Of a stretch of 64,000 nucleotides of DNA, positions 20,319-28,276 are shown piece after piece. Positions within the stretch are counted from its first letter, which is position 1; each line of letters starts with the position of its first letter. Location of the stretch: sequence record NC_028248.1; one strand, 5' to 3'. The stretch comes from Escherichia phage slur16. Both the position numbers and the translations under genes were made by a program. The notes beneath the pieces are model-generated. The model had not been told where the DNA came from, did not search any database, and saw nothing but the letters and a program-made list of their open reading frames with translations.

Positions 20319-20637
20319 CGTTTATGTTCGGGCAAGGTCGCTAGTCTTGCCCCGCCATTTTCAGGCAGCTGCATGTCTCCATGCAGACCAGACTATATCT
20401 TATAAGCGACAACAACCGCTTATCCTCCCGTTTCGAATCGCTTGATTCTACGTCTTTCGACTAGTCGTTGAACGTTCATCCTCTCGGATGCTTCGCTGCG
20501 GATTATCTAAATTAACACACTGTTACCATACCTTCGATCTCTCTTCGAAGCCTCTATCATGTTACCATGACAGGTTGGTGGTATTAATAGTAAAGATTTC
20601 CCCGCAATTAGGGAGGTTTTACGAGAGCTACAAATTA
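20319..20637 (-). mobile_element. group I self-splicing intron (ORF-less) in terL
   Basis: Minus-sense conserved elements in order: P AAUUGCGGGGAA (20609-20598), Q AAUCCGCAGC (20504-20495), R GUUCAACGACUAGUC (20473-20459), S AAGAUAUAGUCUGG (20401-20388); no ORF; splits Walker ATPase from nuclease domain. Confidence 0.8.
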
Positions 20638-21063
20638 ACCCTCATCGAAGCAAACCATGGTGTACTCAAGCCCTTGATGGTTAAGCTTATCTTGTACATA
20701 CTCCATGTGGCAGTATTTTACAACAGCTCCCTTTTTGCTTCTATCCCACTTGCCAGTGTTCGGATCAAACCGTGGAAAAATGAACTTATGATCCTTCTCT
20801 CTGAACTTTGGCTTAATGTTTTCAGGCAGATCACTATAAATAGCTACCGCTTTAGGCCATAGTCCACCCTCACCTTCCAACTGCGGGGTTGTTCTTCGGA
20901 ACATAACCACAGAGCTGTGGGGGTCATCAATAATTTTAAGTGGCATCAATTGCAAGAGGAACGACTTGCCAGACCCTGCGGCACCGCCGATTACCAAAAT
21001 ATCTGCATCGTTTTCGAGGATCATCTTCTGCTTTTCAGAACACGGTCCGTAAATCTTAGACAT
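20638..21063 (-). CDS. terL: terminase large subunit, exon 1 (ATPase domain)
   Basis: Walker A GGAAGSGKS and Walker B-like VCFDE; ORF-track stop at 20635 lies in intron sequence. Confidence 0.8.
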
Positions 21064-22412: not shown

Positions 22413-22511
22413 GGTGCTAGGTGATGGAATCGAACCACCTATGTATTCAACGACTACCTCGTCTATTTTCAGGATTAAAAATCCTCGCCCTTGCCAAAGG
22501 GCTTACCTAGC
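22413..22511 (-). tRNA. aberrant tRNA-like gene (possible pseudo-tRNA; Lys-UUU-like anticodon loop but oversized variable region)
   Basis: Perfect 7 bp acceptor GCUAGGU/ACCUAGC, D-arm GCCC-UUUGGCAA-GGGC and T-arm GGUGG-UUCGAUU-CCAUC, but ~47 nt between D- and T-arms; only CC encoded at 3' end. Confidence 0.3.
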
Positions 22512-23415: not shown

Positions 23416-23763
23416 GTTTCCTCCATTATCACGTGATAGGTGGATTTTATCATAGCAAATACTGATTGTCAAGTTCGCCGCAGGGTGGTATTCCCTGCGA
23501 CTTGTCCAGCGTCCTGGACCAGCAAGACCCAACAAGTGGGTTTTCCAGCTATACCCATTACCGCGCACAGGCTCGACCTTATTACAGGTTGGCTGGGGTC
23601 ACATCGTCATGTGCTGGCTGCCCCTACCATTTTAAGTGTGGTGCACTATCAAGCCCTCTAAGGGGAACTCAGCTTTCTCCGAACCCTGTTTCAAAGCATC
23701 CGGAGATAAAGCCATCAAATTCATCTTTAAATTGGATATTCATCATGATACACGAAAACAACC

Positions 23764-24082: not shown

Positions 24083-24292
24083 TCAACAGATTCCGGCCTT
24101 ATCCCTCCTGTCTGCGTATTCTTTAATCGCAACCTCATCTGCATTGGTGACTAAATCTTCAAAGTAACTCTCAAGCTCCTCGTCAATGTCAGGAAACCAA
24201 CTCTTTTTCCTGTCAGTGTGAATCGCAGACTTGTTGAATTTATTACAGTTCTTTGCTACCGGATTGTTCATTAATCGCCCCTCAGCGTTCAT
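24083..24292 (-). CDS. hypothetical protein
   Basis: 69 aa ORF overlapping upstream gene end by 11 nt. Confidence 0.35.
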   Translation of the reverse strand: MNAEGRLMNNPVAKNCNKFNKSAIHTDRKKSWFPDIDEELESYFEDLVTNADEVAIKEYADRRDKAGIC

Positions 24293-24860
24293 AGTAAATC
24301 TTATTTAACATTACCTCATCCTTTGCAGAAAGAATACCGAGATATGCATCACCGAACCTACCTGCAACAACCTCTACATGATACATAACTTCGTTAATAT
24401 CGTCAAGAGTGATAACTGGATGACCGTACCTCTCTGAGTATTGTCTCAGAGTGCGATGTAGGGAATCATCATCGTAGGCAGACTTTTTAATATCACAAAC
24501 ACGACGAATAGCCTTGATGTCGAAAAACCCTGTGCGATACCAACCAAGAAAAAGGTTTCGTACAGTGTCAACACCTACATCAACACCGTCAAGAACCTTA
24601 TCTACAAGATAGCTGTCATCCTTTGGACCTGCTTCCTTAGTTCGAATGTAGTTGCCATCTTTTCCTGGTGACAGCTCCTTCTCATCACCAACCTGAATGC
24701 CATCATTTGGCGGTGTTAACCACTTATCCGGATGCTTACGATCACGAGCGTTAGAATGATTACGCTGGAAACCTGGCTTCCACTTGAAAGTTTTCTCCAT
24801 CTGTTCTTCATTCTGATAACGTTTTGCAATCTTTTCACGGTCATCTTTGCGTGGACTCAT
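24282..24860 (-). CDS. hypothetical protein
   Basis: 192 aa ORF with strong RBS (GAGGAGG 5 nt before ATG at 24860). Confidence 0.5.
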   Translation of the reverse strand: MSPRKDDREKIAKRYQNEEQMEKTFKWKPGFQRNHSNARDRKHPDKWLTPPNDGIQVGDEKELSPGKDGNYIRTKEAGPKDDSYLVDKVLDGVDVGVDTVRNLFLGWYRTGFFDIKAIRRVCDIKKSAYDDDSLHRTLRQYSERYGHPVITLDDINEVMYHVEVVAGRFGDAYLGILSAKDEVMLNKIYYER

Positions 24861-25365
24861 AGCTGCCTCCTCTTCAAGTTATAGAAAAACTCACTGTATC
24901 GCTTTGTAACGAGCTTTTCTATCAAACTGGTGCGATTGCCTTACCTGGTATAGTTTATATAGCTGTGGAGCGATTTAGGGGCCTTCTTGTCCGTTTCCAC
25001 ACATAAACTTCATCCAAGCTCGCGCGGGAGACTCTCAACCGACTCCTTACGGCGCTGGCAAGCTTTCGTCGGTGGTCCACATCAGTGCTCGGCCTTTGGC
25101 CTGCGCTATCGCTTCGCTCCCACACATGTTAACAGACCTTCATGTATGCACTTCTGTTATTGTGTGCACCAAGGAGGCCCGGCATCTCGCCCCTCGTAGG
25201 CGAGTGCCAATGAAGGGCCGACACTACCTATAGTAAGTAATAAATTTAAAACATGGTACTTAGGATCTAGTATATTCTACATAAGTTAAGTATATGTATT
25301 TAGTACCATAAGTACTAGATCTTTTATTTTTTTTATTATTTAGTTATTTTAGTTATATTCTTTAT

Positions 25366-25448
25366 GTGTCCGTATCACGGACAGTTAGTGTCCGTATTAC
25401 GGACAGATGTGTCCGCGTGACGGACAGTAGTGTCCGTATCACGGACAG
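25366..25448. repeat. four tandem palindromic sites (core TGTCCGT-NNN-ACGGACA), spacing 21-22 bp
   Basis: Copies at 25366-25384, 25388-25406, 25409-25427, 25430-25448; copies 1 and 4 identical; flanked by AT-rich DNA (25321-25365). Confidence 0.9.
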
Positions 25449-25522
25449 TTACTAACCTCTGTTCCAGAGTGAACATAAAACATACGAATCCTTATAGTAC
25501 AGATATTTAAGTTTTTACTGGT

Positions 25523-25873
25523 CTAACCAGTTGTTGACATTCGAATAACTTCTTCTGGTGGCAAAACTTTGGAAAATGTGCATCTTTTACCTCTCCCTTG
25601 TGTGGATATTTCAACCACTCCTGCACATTCTAAAGTTTTAACGCACGCTGCTGCTTTTGTTTTCTTTATCCCAATATCTGCTGCAATTTTCCTTGTGCTG
25701 GGCGTGAAGCGTGAATTTCCTCCAAGCTTATACCAGTTGTGCAGGTAGCAGTATACGATCTTGTCATATAAGTCAAGAACAACAACCTCACCAGTTGTGT
25801 CATTCAAAACTTTTGACATAGACAGTATTTCAAGGGGGACTTTAAGATATAGCAGCTTATCCCCATCTTTCAT
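25523..25873 (-). CDS. winged-helix / HTH DNA-binding protein
   Basis: 116 aa; segment FTPSTRKIAADIGIKKTKAAACVKTLECAGVVEI resembles a winged-helix recognition unit; ends ~75 bp from the palindrome array. Confidence 0.45.
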   Translation of the reverse strand: MKDGDKLLYLKVPLEILSMSKVLNDTTGEVVVLDLYDKIVYCYLHNWYKLGGNSRFTPSTRKIAADIGIKKTKAAACVKTLECAGVVEISTQGRGKRCTFSKVLPPEEVIRMSTTG

Positions 25874-25920
25874 ATCTCCTGATTCTCCTTGTGTGGCAAT
25901 TTTCTTTAAAATAGCAGGGA

Positions 25921-26475
25921 TTACTCCACGCTGTCAATAGCAAGACTCATTGCAATACGGTATGCCTCTTCTAATGGTAAGAGTCTCCCCCACACATCCC
26001 AACCGACATCAAACTGCCTGCCAAACAACTGCTGTGTGGTTCCGTGAGCATGACCGAACAGTTGGACCGATCCGTGAGGCTTTCTGTTCCACTTTGCAAA
26101 CTGGTAATGGCTCATACAGATCAAATTCTTGTTGTGGCGAAGCTCGTAATAATCTACAACCTCATGACCGAACTCTTTCATAATTCTGACAGTCGTCCTT
26201 GTGTCATGGTTACCACGAACAAGAATAATATGTCCGTTCAACATATTTAGAACATCTGGGAGCAATTTGTTAATATTCTTATCATTAGTGCACGCAATAT
26301 CTCCTAAGTGAAACACAGTGTCTGCAGGTGACACAACAGAGTTCCACTTGGTGATGATCCCCGCATTCATACTGTCAAGATTGTGATCATACTGAGATCT
26401 GTGTTTTTGACATGAGTCAAACTCCATGACCCGCTGGTGGAGAAAGTGTGTGTCGCTTGTTACAAAGTATTTCAT
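25921..26475 (-). CDS. calcineurin-like metallophosphoesterase (candidate RNA-repair phosphatase)
   Basis: Motifs DTHF, GDIACTND, GNHD, GHAHG; start set to ATG 26475 (GAGGAA RBS) just after the kinase stop. Confidence 0.65.
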   Translation of the reverse strand: MKYFVTSDTHFLHQRVMEFDSCQKHRSQYDHNLDSMNAGIITKWNSVVSPADTVFHLGDIACTNDKNINKLLPDVLNMLNGHIILVRGNHDTRTTVRIMKEFGHEVVDYYELRHNKNLICMSHYQFAKWNRKPHGSVQLFGHAHGTTQQLFGRQFDVGWDVWGRLLPLEEAYRIAMSLAIDSVE

Positions 26476-26482
26476 ACATTCC

Positions 26483-26950
26483 TCATTTAAGTTTAATGCA
26501 GTTTTTAAGCTGGCGTTCCATACGATCCACAACCCTGTCTGGAACATCATGAATGCTTTTACTACCATGGCGGTTTTCAACCACGATTACGGTATAACTA
26601 TACCTATGACTGATCGCCATGTCAATATATTCTTGCACATATTTTTCTTTTGTAAATGTATTACTTACCACGATACGGTCGTATCCCATACGCATCATAT
26701 CTTCTACGTTATCTTTGCACCATTTTGCTGCAAGTGTTACTTTACTTGCATCCCAGTTGTAATTTCCATCATCGTCGTACCAGAACATGTCGTTCTCAAA
26801 ATGTGGATACAGACCTTCTAAAGATAGCGCACTTGCCAGTGTTGATTTGCCAGACCCTGGTAGACCACGCACGATATATAGCATTTTAGACATAGTAATC
26901 CTCCGTTTTAATTTCAACGATAGTATACCTAACTGTTTTGTTAATTTCAA
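26483..26950 (-). CDS. polynucleotide 5'-kinase, P-loop (T4 Pnk kinase-domain-like)
   Basis: Walker A GLPGSGKST near N-terminus; ~150 aa kinase-only size; adjacent to phosphoesterase and RNA ligase. Confidence 0.6.
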   Translation of the reverse strand: MKLTKQLGILSLKLKRRITMSKMLYIVRGLPGSGKSTLASALSLEGLYPHFENDMFWYDDDGNYNWDASKVTLAAKWCKDNVEDMMRMGYDRIVVSNTFTKEKYVQEYIDMAISHRYSYTVIVVENRHGSKSIHDVPDRVVDRMERQLKNCIKLK

Positions 26951-27011
26951 GTGTTGACACTAGGTTATTTGTGTGGCAGGATAGACTGACAAAATGACAA
27001 ATGAGGAACGT

Positions 27012-27929
27012 ATGATGAAGTATTTTAATGCAGACGACCTAGTTGACAAAGGTCTTGTAACCAGCAGATATCACCCAGACCTTGGGTTAAAGATCTATAA
27101 ATATGCCAGAAAAGTATTCTACAACAACTTATGGCATTTGTCTCCTCGATTACTGGAGTGCCGAGGCATTGTTGTCGGTAATGAAGGAAATGTTGTGGCA
27201 TGGCCCTTTACAAAAGTGTTTAACTTGGGAGAAAACTCCACCAACCTGCCTGACAATAAGCTTGTGACGGCGGTAGAGAAAAAGAACGGATTCCTTGGTG
27301 TGGTGTCATCTCATAAAGGTGAACTATTGTTCTCAACAACCGGGTCTCTTGATTCTCCATATTGTAACCTTGCAAAGGAAACCATCCAGGAGCAATGTGG
27401 TAATTTAGATCTTATCAAGAAGGTTATGGGCAATGAAAATATGACATTCATGTTTGAAATTTGTCACCCCTCAGATCCGCATATTGTTCAGGAAGATCAT
27501 GGCGCATATTTGATAGGTTGCAGATATAATGATTCTGGAATAATGCTACCAGAAGCAGCTTTAGATGGGATTGCCAAATACCTTGGTGCAAAACGTCCTC
27601 ACACTGTGCGTGAAATTCCGTTCAGTTATGCAAAAGAATTAGCTGCAGAAACAAGAGGTGAAGGGTATATGATTCGTAAGCCTTACTACCCTTATGATCT
27701 GCAGCTGAAGATTAAGTCTCCATACTATCTGGCACGGAAGGCCGTAATGAGGGGTAAAGCTTGGAAGATTTGGGATGATGATATCTTTAAACGTGTTGAC
27801 GAAGAGTTTTACGGCATGGTAAACTTCATTCGTAACAACTACACAGAGGATGTATGGAACTGCCTCCTGGAGCAGGAACGCCGTGAGATACTCGATTACT
27901 ATTTCCACAACGAGAACTATATGCAATGA
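27012..27929 (+). CDS. rnlA: RNA ligase 1 (T4 RnlA-like)
   Basis: LLECRGIVV, KVFNLGEN and motif I KKNG match T4 Rnl1 ALECRGIMF, KFFNLNEN, KEDG; start at ATG 27012 with GAGGA RBS (ORF-track ATG 26994 also possible). Confidence 0.75.
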   Translation: MMKYFNADDLVDKGLVTSRYHPDLGLKIYKYARKVFYNNLWHLSPRLLECRGIVVGNEGNVVAWPFTKVFNLGENSTNLPDNKLVTAVEKKNGFLGVVSSHKGELLFSTTGSLDSPYCNLAKETIQEQCGNLDLIKKVMGNENMTFMFEICHPSDPHIVQEDHGAYLIGCRYNDSGIMLPEAALDGIAKYLGAKRPHTVREIPFSYAKELAAETRGEGYMIRKPYYPYDLQLKIKSPYYLARKAVMRGKAWKIWDDDIFKRVDEEFYGMVNFIRNNYTEDVWNCLLEQERREILDYYFHNENYMQ

Positions 27930-28276
27930 AGAAGTTGATTGTGTGGCTAGATGACTTGAGAGATCCGTCAAAGTACGGGCTCCAAGACGCTGTTTGGCTA
28001 AAGAATTCCTCCGAGTTTATAGATTTTATTAACGATAATAGAAAGCTCTACAGACGCGTTTCTGAGTGGCATATGGACAACGACCTTGGAGAGGTATTCG
28101 AAGGGTACGATTGCCTATCTATGTTGGAGGAAAAATTTGTATTTGGTAAGCCTCCTGTAGTTGACAACGTGAAGATTTTCGTGCATACTTCTAACCCATC
28201 AGCGGCTCGTAAATTCATGCTTGCAGCTGACTCGTTTAAAAAGTTTGGAATAGAGATTAAACAAAACATCTACTGA
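27926..28276 (+). CDS. hypothetical protein
   Basis: 116 aa ORF, ATGA-coupled to upstream gene, immediately upstream of Sir2 gene. Confidence 0.45.
   Translation: MKKLIVWLDDLRDPSKYGLQDAVWLKNSSEFIDFINDNRKLYRRVSEWHMDNDLGEVFEGYDCLSMLEEKFVFGKPPVVDNVKIFVHTSNPSAARKFMLAADSFKKFGIEIKQNIY

Follow-up and report, generated by a model that had tools for sequence, protein, structure and literature searches.

What is the GC-rich, seemingly non-coding block that separates two leftward genes in Escherichia phage slur16, and what holds it in place? The window, by which we mean the whole stretch of 64,000 nucleotides that was analyzed (sequence record NC_028248.1), is that of an rV5-like Vequintavirus phage of E. 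coli; its segment 24900-25500 has 100% identity with Escherichia phage slur12 and 89-100% identity with 117 rV5-like (Vequintavirus) records in a blastn search of 50,697 phage records, which returned no match to this segment beyond the rV5-like phages. The block is present in all 117 of these records. It occupies part of the 660 bp that separate a gene for a 116-aa winged-helix protein (25523-25873) from one for a 192-aa protein (24282-24860), and the genes flanking it are on the minus strand. An initial annotation had placed here, at 24975-25245, a GC-rich, highly structured non-coding block that may encode a stable RNA; comparison with relatives shifted the limits to ~24970-25222, with the minus strand as the reading sense and with a 5' edge at 25222/25223 set by a recombination breakpoint in a divergent relative (L011). 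The claimed excess of GC over the flanks was borne out (0.565 at 25000-25199 and 0.515 at 24900-25099 vs. 0.42-0.455 on the left and 0.295 at 25200-25399 on the right), and the three inverted repeats that had been named are all present, CTCGCC..GGCGAG as part of hairpin H1 (25173-25222), GGCC-TTTG-GCC as part of H3 (25083-25118) and CCGAC..GTCGG as the upper stem of the core hairpin (25024-25080). A covariance model of this core found a single copy per genome, with no extra copies. We also observed that a tRNA cluster is situated ~2 kb downstream of the block and that a neighbouring second unannotated block folds well (z = -3.0). From the winged-helix gene leftwards, the parts of the locus are as follows:

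25523-25873, minus strand: winged-helix protein of 116 aa, initiator-like, which heads the cassette (ORF; Pfam; PHROGs; RefSeq V5)
25366-25448, no strand assigned: four palindromic iterons GTGTCCGTATCACGGACAG, spaced by 21-22 bp (repeat search)
25223-25365, no strand assigned: AT-rich spacer, putative DNA-unwinding region (GC 0.295 at 25200-25399)
~25254-25317: inverted repeat inside the AT-rich spacer
25173-25222, minus strand: H1 hairpin, 5' end of the conserved block, GUCGGCCC..GGCA CUCGCC UACGAGG GGCGAG A UGCC GGGCC
25121-25166, minus strand: H2 hairpin, variable module with CACACA/UGUGUG pairing around an inner stem (minimum-free-energy fold)
25119-25128, minus strand: separator motif CAUGUGUGGG, aligning with plasmid boxC UCUGUGUGGG
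25083-25118, minus strand: module H3, AGCGAAGCGAUAGCGC AGGCCAAAGGCC GAGCACUG
25024-25080, minus strand: core hairpin with base GUGG/CCGC and a six-pair upper stem ACCGAC/GUCGGU
25044-25067, minus strand: core loop GAAAGCUUGCCAGCGCCGUAAGGA, 24 nt
24996-25005, minus strand: second UGUGUGG motif UAUGUGUGGA
24970-24983, minus strand: tail GGCCCCUAAAUCGC, the 3' limit of plasmid similarity

Phages are not the only carriers of this element. When 5,426 complete E. coli genomes were searched by blastn, the block turned up on small circular plasmids, in DNA that carries no annotation, and a plasmid copy used as query identified carriers in 7 genomes, with plasmids of 13.2-13.7 kb (~13 kb), one plasmid record being a 39.6-kb head-to-tail trimer; the plasmid group also includes two metagenome contigs (13.9 and 15.5 kb). 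In a nucleotide comparison of a plasmid with the complete V5 genome, the element is the longest stretch of similarity, and the only other non-coding V5 match comprises 49 nt at 88% identity inside the plasmid Rep-like gene. Scanning for an exact 19-mer of the core in genome and metagenome contigs recovered solely rV5-like contigs and two plasmid-like ones, the rest being chance matches in GC-rich genomes, and the same scan of IMG/VR yielded one rV5-like contig and one chance match; a scan of IMG/VR for arrays of TGTGTGGG gave 67 loci, each of which proved to be a tandem repeat in coding sequence, a CRISPR array or an unrelated repeat. Upstream of the plasmid core is an array in which separators, UCUGUGUGGG or UGUGUGUGGG, are each followed by a short GC-hairpin cassette, the number of cassettes varying from 1 to 4 among near-identical plasmids. 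Some of these cassettes include C-UUCG-G loops, a G-rich run is found upstream of plasmid copies only, and the plasmids have GCCCCCUAAAUGGCC at the relative position of the phage tail GGCCCCUAAAUCGC. In three plasmids, the core shared with the phages (type 1) is replaced in the same slot by a type 2 core, with an eight-pair stem and an 18-nt loop AAGAGACUUCUGUUUCCA. Given that the 5' half of phage H3 resembles the opening of the plasmid type 2 module (AGCGUAGUGCGAUAGCAC), that the phage core is of type 1 and that H1 resembles that of one plasmid, the phage element is a mosaic; modules have moved between phages and plasmids.

These copies allowed us to examine the element for conserved structure. 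To the eye it is highly structured, as had been claimed, but its predicted folding energy is ordinary for its composition (z = -1.67 on the minus and -1.58 on the plus strand vs. composition-matched expectation), and unusual structure seen by eye alone is therefore not evidence. The structure is shown instead by compensatory changes across relatives, which the initial annotation had proposed as a check, with double substitutions that preserve hairpins between phage and plasmid copies. In the 65-nt core common to both (alignment A2), 3 of the 6 upper-stem pairs are doubly changed between phage and plasmids (A-U to G-C, C-G to U-A and A-U to C-G) with every cell paired, the first pair being G.U in two phages, and the 24-nt loop is constant across phages and plasmids except for one U/G position. 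None of 500 shuffles reached the observed covariation score of the core, the pairing was lost when the partners were slid, and RNAalifold returned the same core hairpin plus the base helix GUGG/CCGC, in which 12 of 13 sequences have a U.G pair and the thirteenth has C-G. Outside the type 1 core, plasmid NZ_CP020521 shares the H1 hairpin with two double changes (GGCA/UGCC to GUCA/UGAC and CUCGCC/GGCGAG to CUCUCC/GGAGAG), and the type 2 stem is doubly changed between plasmids and phage (GUCCGGAU/AUCCGGAC to GUUCGGAU/AUCCGAAC) around an 18-nt loop that is identical in the two. The H2 module has an 18-nt deletion in Murica and typing phage 5 in which the inner stem is lost and the CACACAU/AUGUGUG pairing is kept. 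As for the strand on which the structure acts, conserved G.U pairs tilt slightly towards the minus strand, on which the flanking genes are also read, and the type 2 closing helix GUGGAG/UUCCGC in one copy (L143) has two wobbles. A possible pair between columns 8 and 53, on the other hand, reads in two or three phages as A.C if taken on the minus strand and as G.U if taken on the plus strand, and the cassette hairpins are nearly all perfect Watson-Crick, which fits DNA hairpins as well as RNA. Either RNA or single-stranded DNA could thus be the active form on the computed evidence.

The same copies bear on whether the block codes for a small protein. As had been noted, no minus-strand ORF of 60 aa or more covers the block, although one of 56 aa (24955-25125) is just below this limit, and the plus strand has an ORF of 70 aa at 24987-25199. 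The 56-aa ORF is annotated as hypothetical in V5 (ORF78/gp074) and in BASEL phages and is intact in 8 of 11 phage copies, but it starts with GTG and is broken in the other three, by stops in L011 and B9-1 and by a frame shift in Alma; the plus ORF contains stops in 8 of the 11. Neither ORF is preserved in the plasmids despite invariant core nucleotides, and substitutions are paired across stems. With neither frame kept intact in relatives, the description of the block as non-coding stands, and we consider a protein product from either ORF very improbable. The initial annotation had also allowed for a degraded coding remnant of host origin, and the GC content of the block is indeed near the E. 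coli value. Such a functionless remnant, or a recombination scar, is already contradicted by the pattern of conservation, as the block is kept in 117 of 117 rV5-like records with an invariant loop and covarying stems, and blastn of the 5,426 E. coli genomes gave no match to it on the chromosomes; we regard its probability as close to negligible.

What the element is for may be gleaned from its surroundings. On the minus strand, a winged-helix gene is followed by 3-4 iterons, an AT-rich stretch and then the element, and this order and polarity are the same in four independent contexts, with the iterons consistently 5' of the element on the UGUGUGG-bearing strand. The first context is the window itself, with the 116-aa gene, four iterons (21-22 bp), the AT-rich stretch and the block; the iterons, annotated as repeat_region in phages pangalan and Alma, are kept in rV5-like relatives. 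The second is a divergent rV5-like phage from IMG/VR (L011, L062) that retains the block and the downstream gene but combines them with a different winged-helix homologue of 143 aa, iterons of its own in place of those in the window (three in L011) and a different A-rich stretch instead of the AT-rich spacer, homology between L011 and the window beginning exactly at the 5' end of H1. The second UGUGUGG motif (24996-25005), conserved in most rV5-like relatives, is not conserved in L011. The third came from a scan with the type 2 loop, which identified one viral contig, a second locus of the same divergent phage: here (L146), a 1-kb insertion between the gp019 and gp020 homologues comprises a 152-aa winged-helix gene, four iterons ACCYGGGGAATTTTCCCC spaced by 22-25 bp, an AT-rich stretch, hairpins, a type 2 element whose stem carries one compensatory change, and a promoter-like site TTGCAA-17-TATAGT. 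In the fourth, the plasmids, iteron arrays precede the element and an operon encoding a 303-aa Rep-like protein follows, with the predicted sigma-70-like promoters of this operon positioned after the element. Plasmid iteron families are independent of core type, as exemplified by a type 1 (L008) and a type 2 (L144) plasmid that share iterons; since the two do not co-vary, iterons and core are separate modules. The element is the constant last part of the cassette, and initiator and iterons are exchangeable.

The proteins that head these cassettes are initiator-like to differing degrees. The three phage winged-helix proteins (116, 143 and 152 aa) are mutually alignable, and two of them match PHROGs named replication initiation protein. 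The 116-aa protein matches phrog_12838 at 3e-80 ('replication initiation protein'), with phrog_8102, 428 and 270 matched weakly, and Pfam HTH_36 at 25.1 bits vs. a cutoff of 25, with DUF6945 just under cutoff; RefSeq V5 annotates its homologue as a replication initiation protein, a name based on homology. For the 152-aa protein, we found no PHROG match and weak HTH matches. The plasmid 303-aa protein has weak matches to 'replication initiation O-like' PHROGs, and comparison of the phage winged-helix proteins with it revealed no significant homology. The hallmarks of an iteron origin, that is, at least three direct repeats at approximately helical spacing beside an initiator gene and an AT-rich region beside the iterons, are present in the window, in L011 and, with the gene of weak HTH matches, in L146, and the strand-specific conserved hairpins, in fixed polarity to the putative origin, that would mark a single-strand initiation (ssi) site are present as well. 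The minimum of the cumulative GC skew of V5, at 66,689, lies ~1.7 kb from the element, but it adds little because it coincides with a switch in gene strand. Inspected by eye, one potential DnaA box, GTTTCCACA (24994-25002, plus strand), agrees with 8 of the 9 positions of TTWTNCACA and is not conserved in L011 or Aya, and another, GGTCCACAT, fits at 6-7 of 9. T7-type primase sites (GTGTC/GGGTC) at the 5' edge of H1 and after the boxC repeats were set aside, the motif being too short for significance, as was the tail CCCCTAAAT as a late promoter, the motif being unique in the V5 genome and not repeated.

That the element recurs at the end of cassettes made of initiator, iterons and AT-rich stretch suggests a role linked to an origin. 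Our preferred reading, to which we assign a probability of about 0.4, is of an origin cassette of the iteron type in which the block is the constant arm, specific to one strand and working as single-stranded DNA or as an origin transcript. We infer that the cassette is an origin, that the block acts when single-stranded and that a partner reads it. We envisage that the initiator would bind the iterons and open the AT-rich stretch, upon which the adjoining block would become single-stranded or be transcribed through and fold into hairpins, and that the replication machinery would read the loop and its flanks for primer synthesis or for helicase/primosome loading; alternatively, the block may work as an origin transcript. 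Initiator and iterons are swapped between genomes as a specificity module with the hairpin block retained, and phages and the ~13-kb satellite-like plasmids exchange hairpin-block modules. Several features weigh against the origin reading: 1) 'replication initiation protein' is a homology-based name, HTH_36 is matched at its cutoff and the 152-aa protein lacks a PHROG; 2) palindromic repeats beside an HTH gene could be operators rather than iterons; 3) the cassette is always co-oriented with the flanking genes, and hence the block is probably transcribed in the sense direction; 4) some features are RNA-like, namely the U.G pair at the base, the G.U pair in two phages and the C-UUCG-G loops and boxC repeats of the plasmids; 5) two alternative cores in one phage, and 1-4 cassettes among near-identical plasmids, are unexpected for a single host primase site.

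Some of these features would be at home in a stable or cis-acting minus-strand non-coding RNA with no role in replication, lying within or processed from the gp075-gp073 transcript and binding a protein or RNA through its loop. A stable or leader RNA unrelated to replication is a serious rival, one that we hold to be possible though short of likely. Its helices covary and contain minus-sense G.U pairs (the base U.G in 12 of 13 sequences, the G.U in two phages and the two wobbles in the type 2 closing helix of L143), the element is co-oriented with the downstream genes in every context, the plasmid cassettes have C-UUCG-G loops, and the tRNA cluster lies 2 kb downstream, with the well-folding unannotated block (z = -3.0) next to the element. 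Against this, chance would have to account for the strict link, in four contexts, to initiator-iteron-AT cassettes, two or three phages have at columns 8-53 a possible pair that would be A.C in the minus sense and G.U in the plus sense, and overall folding reaches a z of just -1.67. The promoter and terminator of its own that a small RNA gene would have were also lacking: neither a sigma-70-like promoter upstream nor an intrinsic terminator downstream of the block was found on either strand, in a scan that used the sigma-70 consensus only, which a phage-specific promoter may escape. In agreement with the initial annotation, which recognized no known ncRNA family, a search of the window and the block against Rfam 15 gave nothing at gathering thresholds and nothing credible up to E=10, the best match at E<=10 being rli43 (21.9 bits vs. 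a threshold of 100), mostly over the AT-rich part; the plasmid copy likewise had no credible Rfam match. The suggestion of a stable RNA thus holds as to structure and absence of coding and falters on the lack of sigma-70-like promoter and intrinsic terminator around the block. A more specific identity, an RNA anti-CRISPR mimicking the type I-E repeat, was rejected. GAGUCUCCCGCGCGAGCUUGGAUGAAG agrees at 20 of 27 positions with what we take to be the E. coli type I-E CRISPR repeat, but the hairpin is lost, with two central stem pairs mismatched; the 3' half of GAGUCUCCCGCGCGAGCUUGGAUGAAG is not conserved in plasmids.

The separators of the plasmid array suggested a further kinship, with the leader of rRNA operons. 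In this leader, boxC is defined as UCUGUGUGGG and pairs with the trailer, and boxA is the necessary and sufficient antitermination element (PMC10250234); boxC, a binding site for SuhB or NusA, also forms part of the RNase III duplex (PMC6614801). An element mimicking an rrn leader might recruit the Nus factors, NusA and SuhB among them, so that antitermination would carry transcription processively across the untranslated tRNA region and along the long leftward operon or, in a variant, might provide RNase III sites modelled on the 16S leader-trailer helix; taken jointly, we deem these two versions unlikely. The plasmid copies hold 1-4 exact boxC sequences UCUGUGUGGG, one of them agrees with the rrnH leader at 15 of 16 positions, 13 of them consecutive (AGGCAAUCUGUGUGGG), a score that 0 of 500 shuffles reached, and an adjacent plasmid hairpin contains a perfect boxA UGCUCUUUA, albeit on the strand opposite the boxC repeats, the only strand with a perfect copy; in the phage, UGUGUG pairs with CACACA in H2. 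The boxC repeats of the plasmids, though exact, have the wrong spacing when compared with the 18-19 nt downstream of boxA. For the phage element, we required boxA as UGCUCUUUA or CGCUCUUA on the transcribed sense strand, and boxA is absent: no site with <2 mismatches to TGCTCTTTAACA exists in the whole window, 24861-25522 included. The boxC-like sites of the phage element (24996-25005 and 25119-25128, each 8/10 positions) belong to a class that is not enriched, with 65 observed vs. 56 expected when counted window-wide at <=2 mismatches. Moreover, the last UGUGG motif is a helix strand rather than a free binding site, and the predicted sigma-70-like promoters of the plasmids are downstream of the element. 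Nus-type antitermination was rejected for the phage element as it has no boxA, and with boxC at chance level and neither promoter nor terminator, we do not class the element as an rrn/nut-type site. The boxC identity in the plasmids remains as an unexplained lead.

The plasmids themselves raise another alternative. Their genes include those for a major capsid protein, a tape measure protein and HTH proteins, and three of the encoded proteins are homologous to those of V5 (gp048 at 50% identity, the neck/tail completion protein gp056 at 45% and the tape measure protein gp049 at 25%); no terminase was recognized among the plasmid proteins. The ~13-kb plasmids look like satellites of rV5-like phages, as we gather from this gene content, and our literature searches on these plasmids and on rV5 satellites, ncRNAs or transcriptomes found nothing relevant. 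The element might be a pac or other helper-recognition site, copied by the plasmids for packaging by the phage terminase, which would tally with its being the longest plasmid/V5 nucleotide similarity, with homologues of gp048, gp056 and tape measure encoded in the absence of a recognized terminase, and with the head-to-tail trimer of one plasmid record. We find this explanation rather improbable, as compensatory stem changes are unexpected for a double-stranded protein-binding site, the terminase gene is ~4 kb from the element, and one phage has two different versions at two loci, each within an iteron cassette. A broader conjecture, which we consider doubtful yet worth stating, is that the plasmids form an unrecognized plasmid-borne satellite family and that, by way of the element as a shared cis handle, helper and satellite vie for the machinery of replication or transcription; the reshuffled cassettes and cores would then be a trace of this conflict, and boxC would point to host rRNA-leader factors. 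Conserved structure, polarity, recurrent linkage and sharing with plasmids are what we observed, and it is the origin-cassette reading that we carry forward.

To our knowledge, no origin has been mapped in any rV5-like phage, and the cassette is a concrete and testable origin candidate for this group, which is widely used in therapy and typing. The element is also a structured family absent from Rfam, and it ties strictly lytic phages to rare autonomous plasmids carrying rV5-type neck, baseplate-region and tape-measure homologues together with a capsid protein of their own, plasmids that would be the first candidate satellites of the rV5-like group. If the element is a priming or loading signal, the parasite would keep its own initiator and borrow the downstream machinery of the helper; if it is an RNA, it would be a new modular RNA bearing rRNA-leader motifs.

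Known systems offer partial likenesses. The lambda origin comprises four palindromic O-binding iterons at approximately helical spacing, a winged-helix initiator, an AT-rich region and an adjacent palindrome, and the cassette resembles it in the succession of iterons, AT-rich region and dyad-symmetric sequence; in lambda, the origin is located within the O gene and has a short palindrome, whereas here the initiator-like proteins are of 116-152 aa and the arm is long, modular and conserved across different initiators. The G4- and phiX-type priming signals, known from ssDNA phages and from R1 and ColE1, are GC-rich hairpin clusters on one strand that are read when single-stranded, downstream of plasmid origins; the element is like them in its one-strand clustering of GC-rich hairpins, though those signals are defined by function. 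In ColE1 RNA II and the T4 origin R-loop primers, a structured transcript across the origin joins in initiation, but unlike these, the phage copy had no promoter, RNase H site or persistent-hybrid motif that we could find. The likeness to the rrn leader consists of the exact boxC and the boxA-containing hairpin in plasmid copies and of UGUGUG pairing with CACACA or CCCACA, as boxC does with the trailer (PMC10250234); it is offset by the lack of boxA in the phage, by plasmid boxA and boxC being on opposite strands, by a spacing of 5-10 nt vs. 18-19 nt and by repetition of the motif up to four times. In architecture, the nearest precedent is the IncQ oriV, where iteron-binding RepC opens the origin and exposes the ssiA/ssiB hairpins to the plasmid primase (PMC6925257). 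As with ssiA/ssiB of RSF1010/R1162, strand-specific hairpins are found beside iterons and an AT-rich stretch, but the IncQ sites are short, number two, lie on opposite strands and come with a primase gene of the plasmid itself, whereas the element here is one ~250-nt block with 4-5 hairpins, all on the same strand, whose cores are interchangeable, whose cassettes vary in number and whose priming role is a proposed one. The family is new to Rfam and to searchable papers and its general kind, an origin-side hairpin module or origin-linked RNA, is known; what is new is the architecture, the two interchangeable cores and the sharing between a lytic phage group and satellite-like plasmids.

In one rV5-like phage the initiator-iteron-element cassette is present at a second locus, and a repeated sequence occurs in another viral contig:

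L146 1462-2500 (second locus of a divergent IMG/VR rV5-like phage; IMGVR_UViG_3300010279_000001, contig 83494-88766): second initiator-iteron-element cassette
L075 12137-12211 (IMGVR_UViG_3300023082_000009): three intergenic copies of TCTGTGTGGGCATGTGG, 37-38 nt apart

The cassette in L146 is a 1-kb insertion that separates the homologues of gp019 and gp020, and it is missing from both the rV5-like phage V5 and the IMG/VR relative L147. At the position where the phage of L146 has the type 2 cassette inserted, V5 carries CTCTGTGGGCATGTGGACC, just upstream of its own promoter P20. The contig with the TCTGTGTGGGCATGTGG copies is an unrelated, GC-rich viral sequence. Exact TGTGTGG sites number 20 in the 64-kb window vs. 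9.9 expected, with 8 of these lying within 3 kb (24997-27946), around the putative origin and the point where the strand switches.

Several further features were located in the window and in V5:

Window 20369-20647, minus strand: group I intron (Rfam, 84 bits), inside the large terminase gene
Window 22413-22511, minus strand: oversized tRNA-like gene (97-99 nt)
Window 23470-23720, minus strand: second GC-rich intergenic block, without annotation
V5 (NC_011041) 104,013-106,618, outside the window: 2.6-kb stretch without an annotated gene, on which transcription converges

The large terminase gene of V5 is annotated as a joined CDS in three parts, with an HNH endonuclease within. For the tRNA-like gene, ARAGORN returned an undetermined anticodon, while other records name it tRNA-Lys(TTT) or "tRNA-OTHER"; it may harbor an intron or insertion. 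The second GC-rich block folds far better than its shuffled versions (z = -3.04, with 0 of 200 shuffles equally stable) and has a TTGACA-17-TAAAAT site downstream; Rfam yielded no match for this block, and the element-bearing plasmids do not have it. Residues 105,688-105,736 of V5 share 88% identity over 49 nt with a plasmid Rep-like gene.

Given that 18 records named "Campylobacter phage" (MG0656xx) are 97-99% identical to the E. coli phage region studied, this naming is doubtful. The element is also present in the E. coli "plasmid" record CP057073.1, where it is 85% identical to one of the plasmid copies; at 137.6 kb, this record is the same size as an rV5-like genome.

Plasmid copies of the element are accompanied by a hairpin, and were found in these records:

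Plus strand, e.g. L043 (one of the plasmid copies) 4967-4995: hairpin GCCUAAAGAG..CUCUUUAGGC
Plasmid records: NZ_CP020521.1 (L006), NZ_CP043822.1 (L009), NZ_CP035869.1, CP148565.1, NZ_CP178698.1, NZ_JBUCKS010000006.1, NZ_AP045055.1, NZ_CP074841.1

A perfect rrn boxA lies within this hairpin in the plus sense and, since UUUCAUUUGU follows on the same sense, the structure looks like an intrinsic terminator of plus-sense transcription. A weak divergent promoter is positioned ~600 nt upstream, making an antisense RNA that spans the plasmid element possible.

These E. coli plasmids are circular and 13.2-13.7 kb in length, from isolates of human, chicken, pig and cattle origin. Their gene products include a capsid protein and a tape measure as well as homologues of rV5 gp048 and gp056, with no terminase recognizable among them. 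One of the records holds a trimer, and 10 plasmid copies would amount to about the length of an rV5 genome. We surmise that these plasmids are possibly undescribed satellites.
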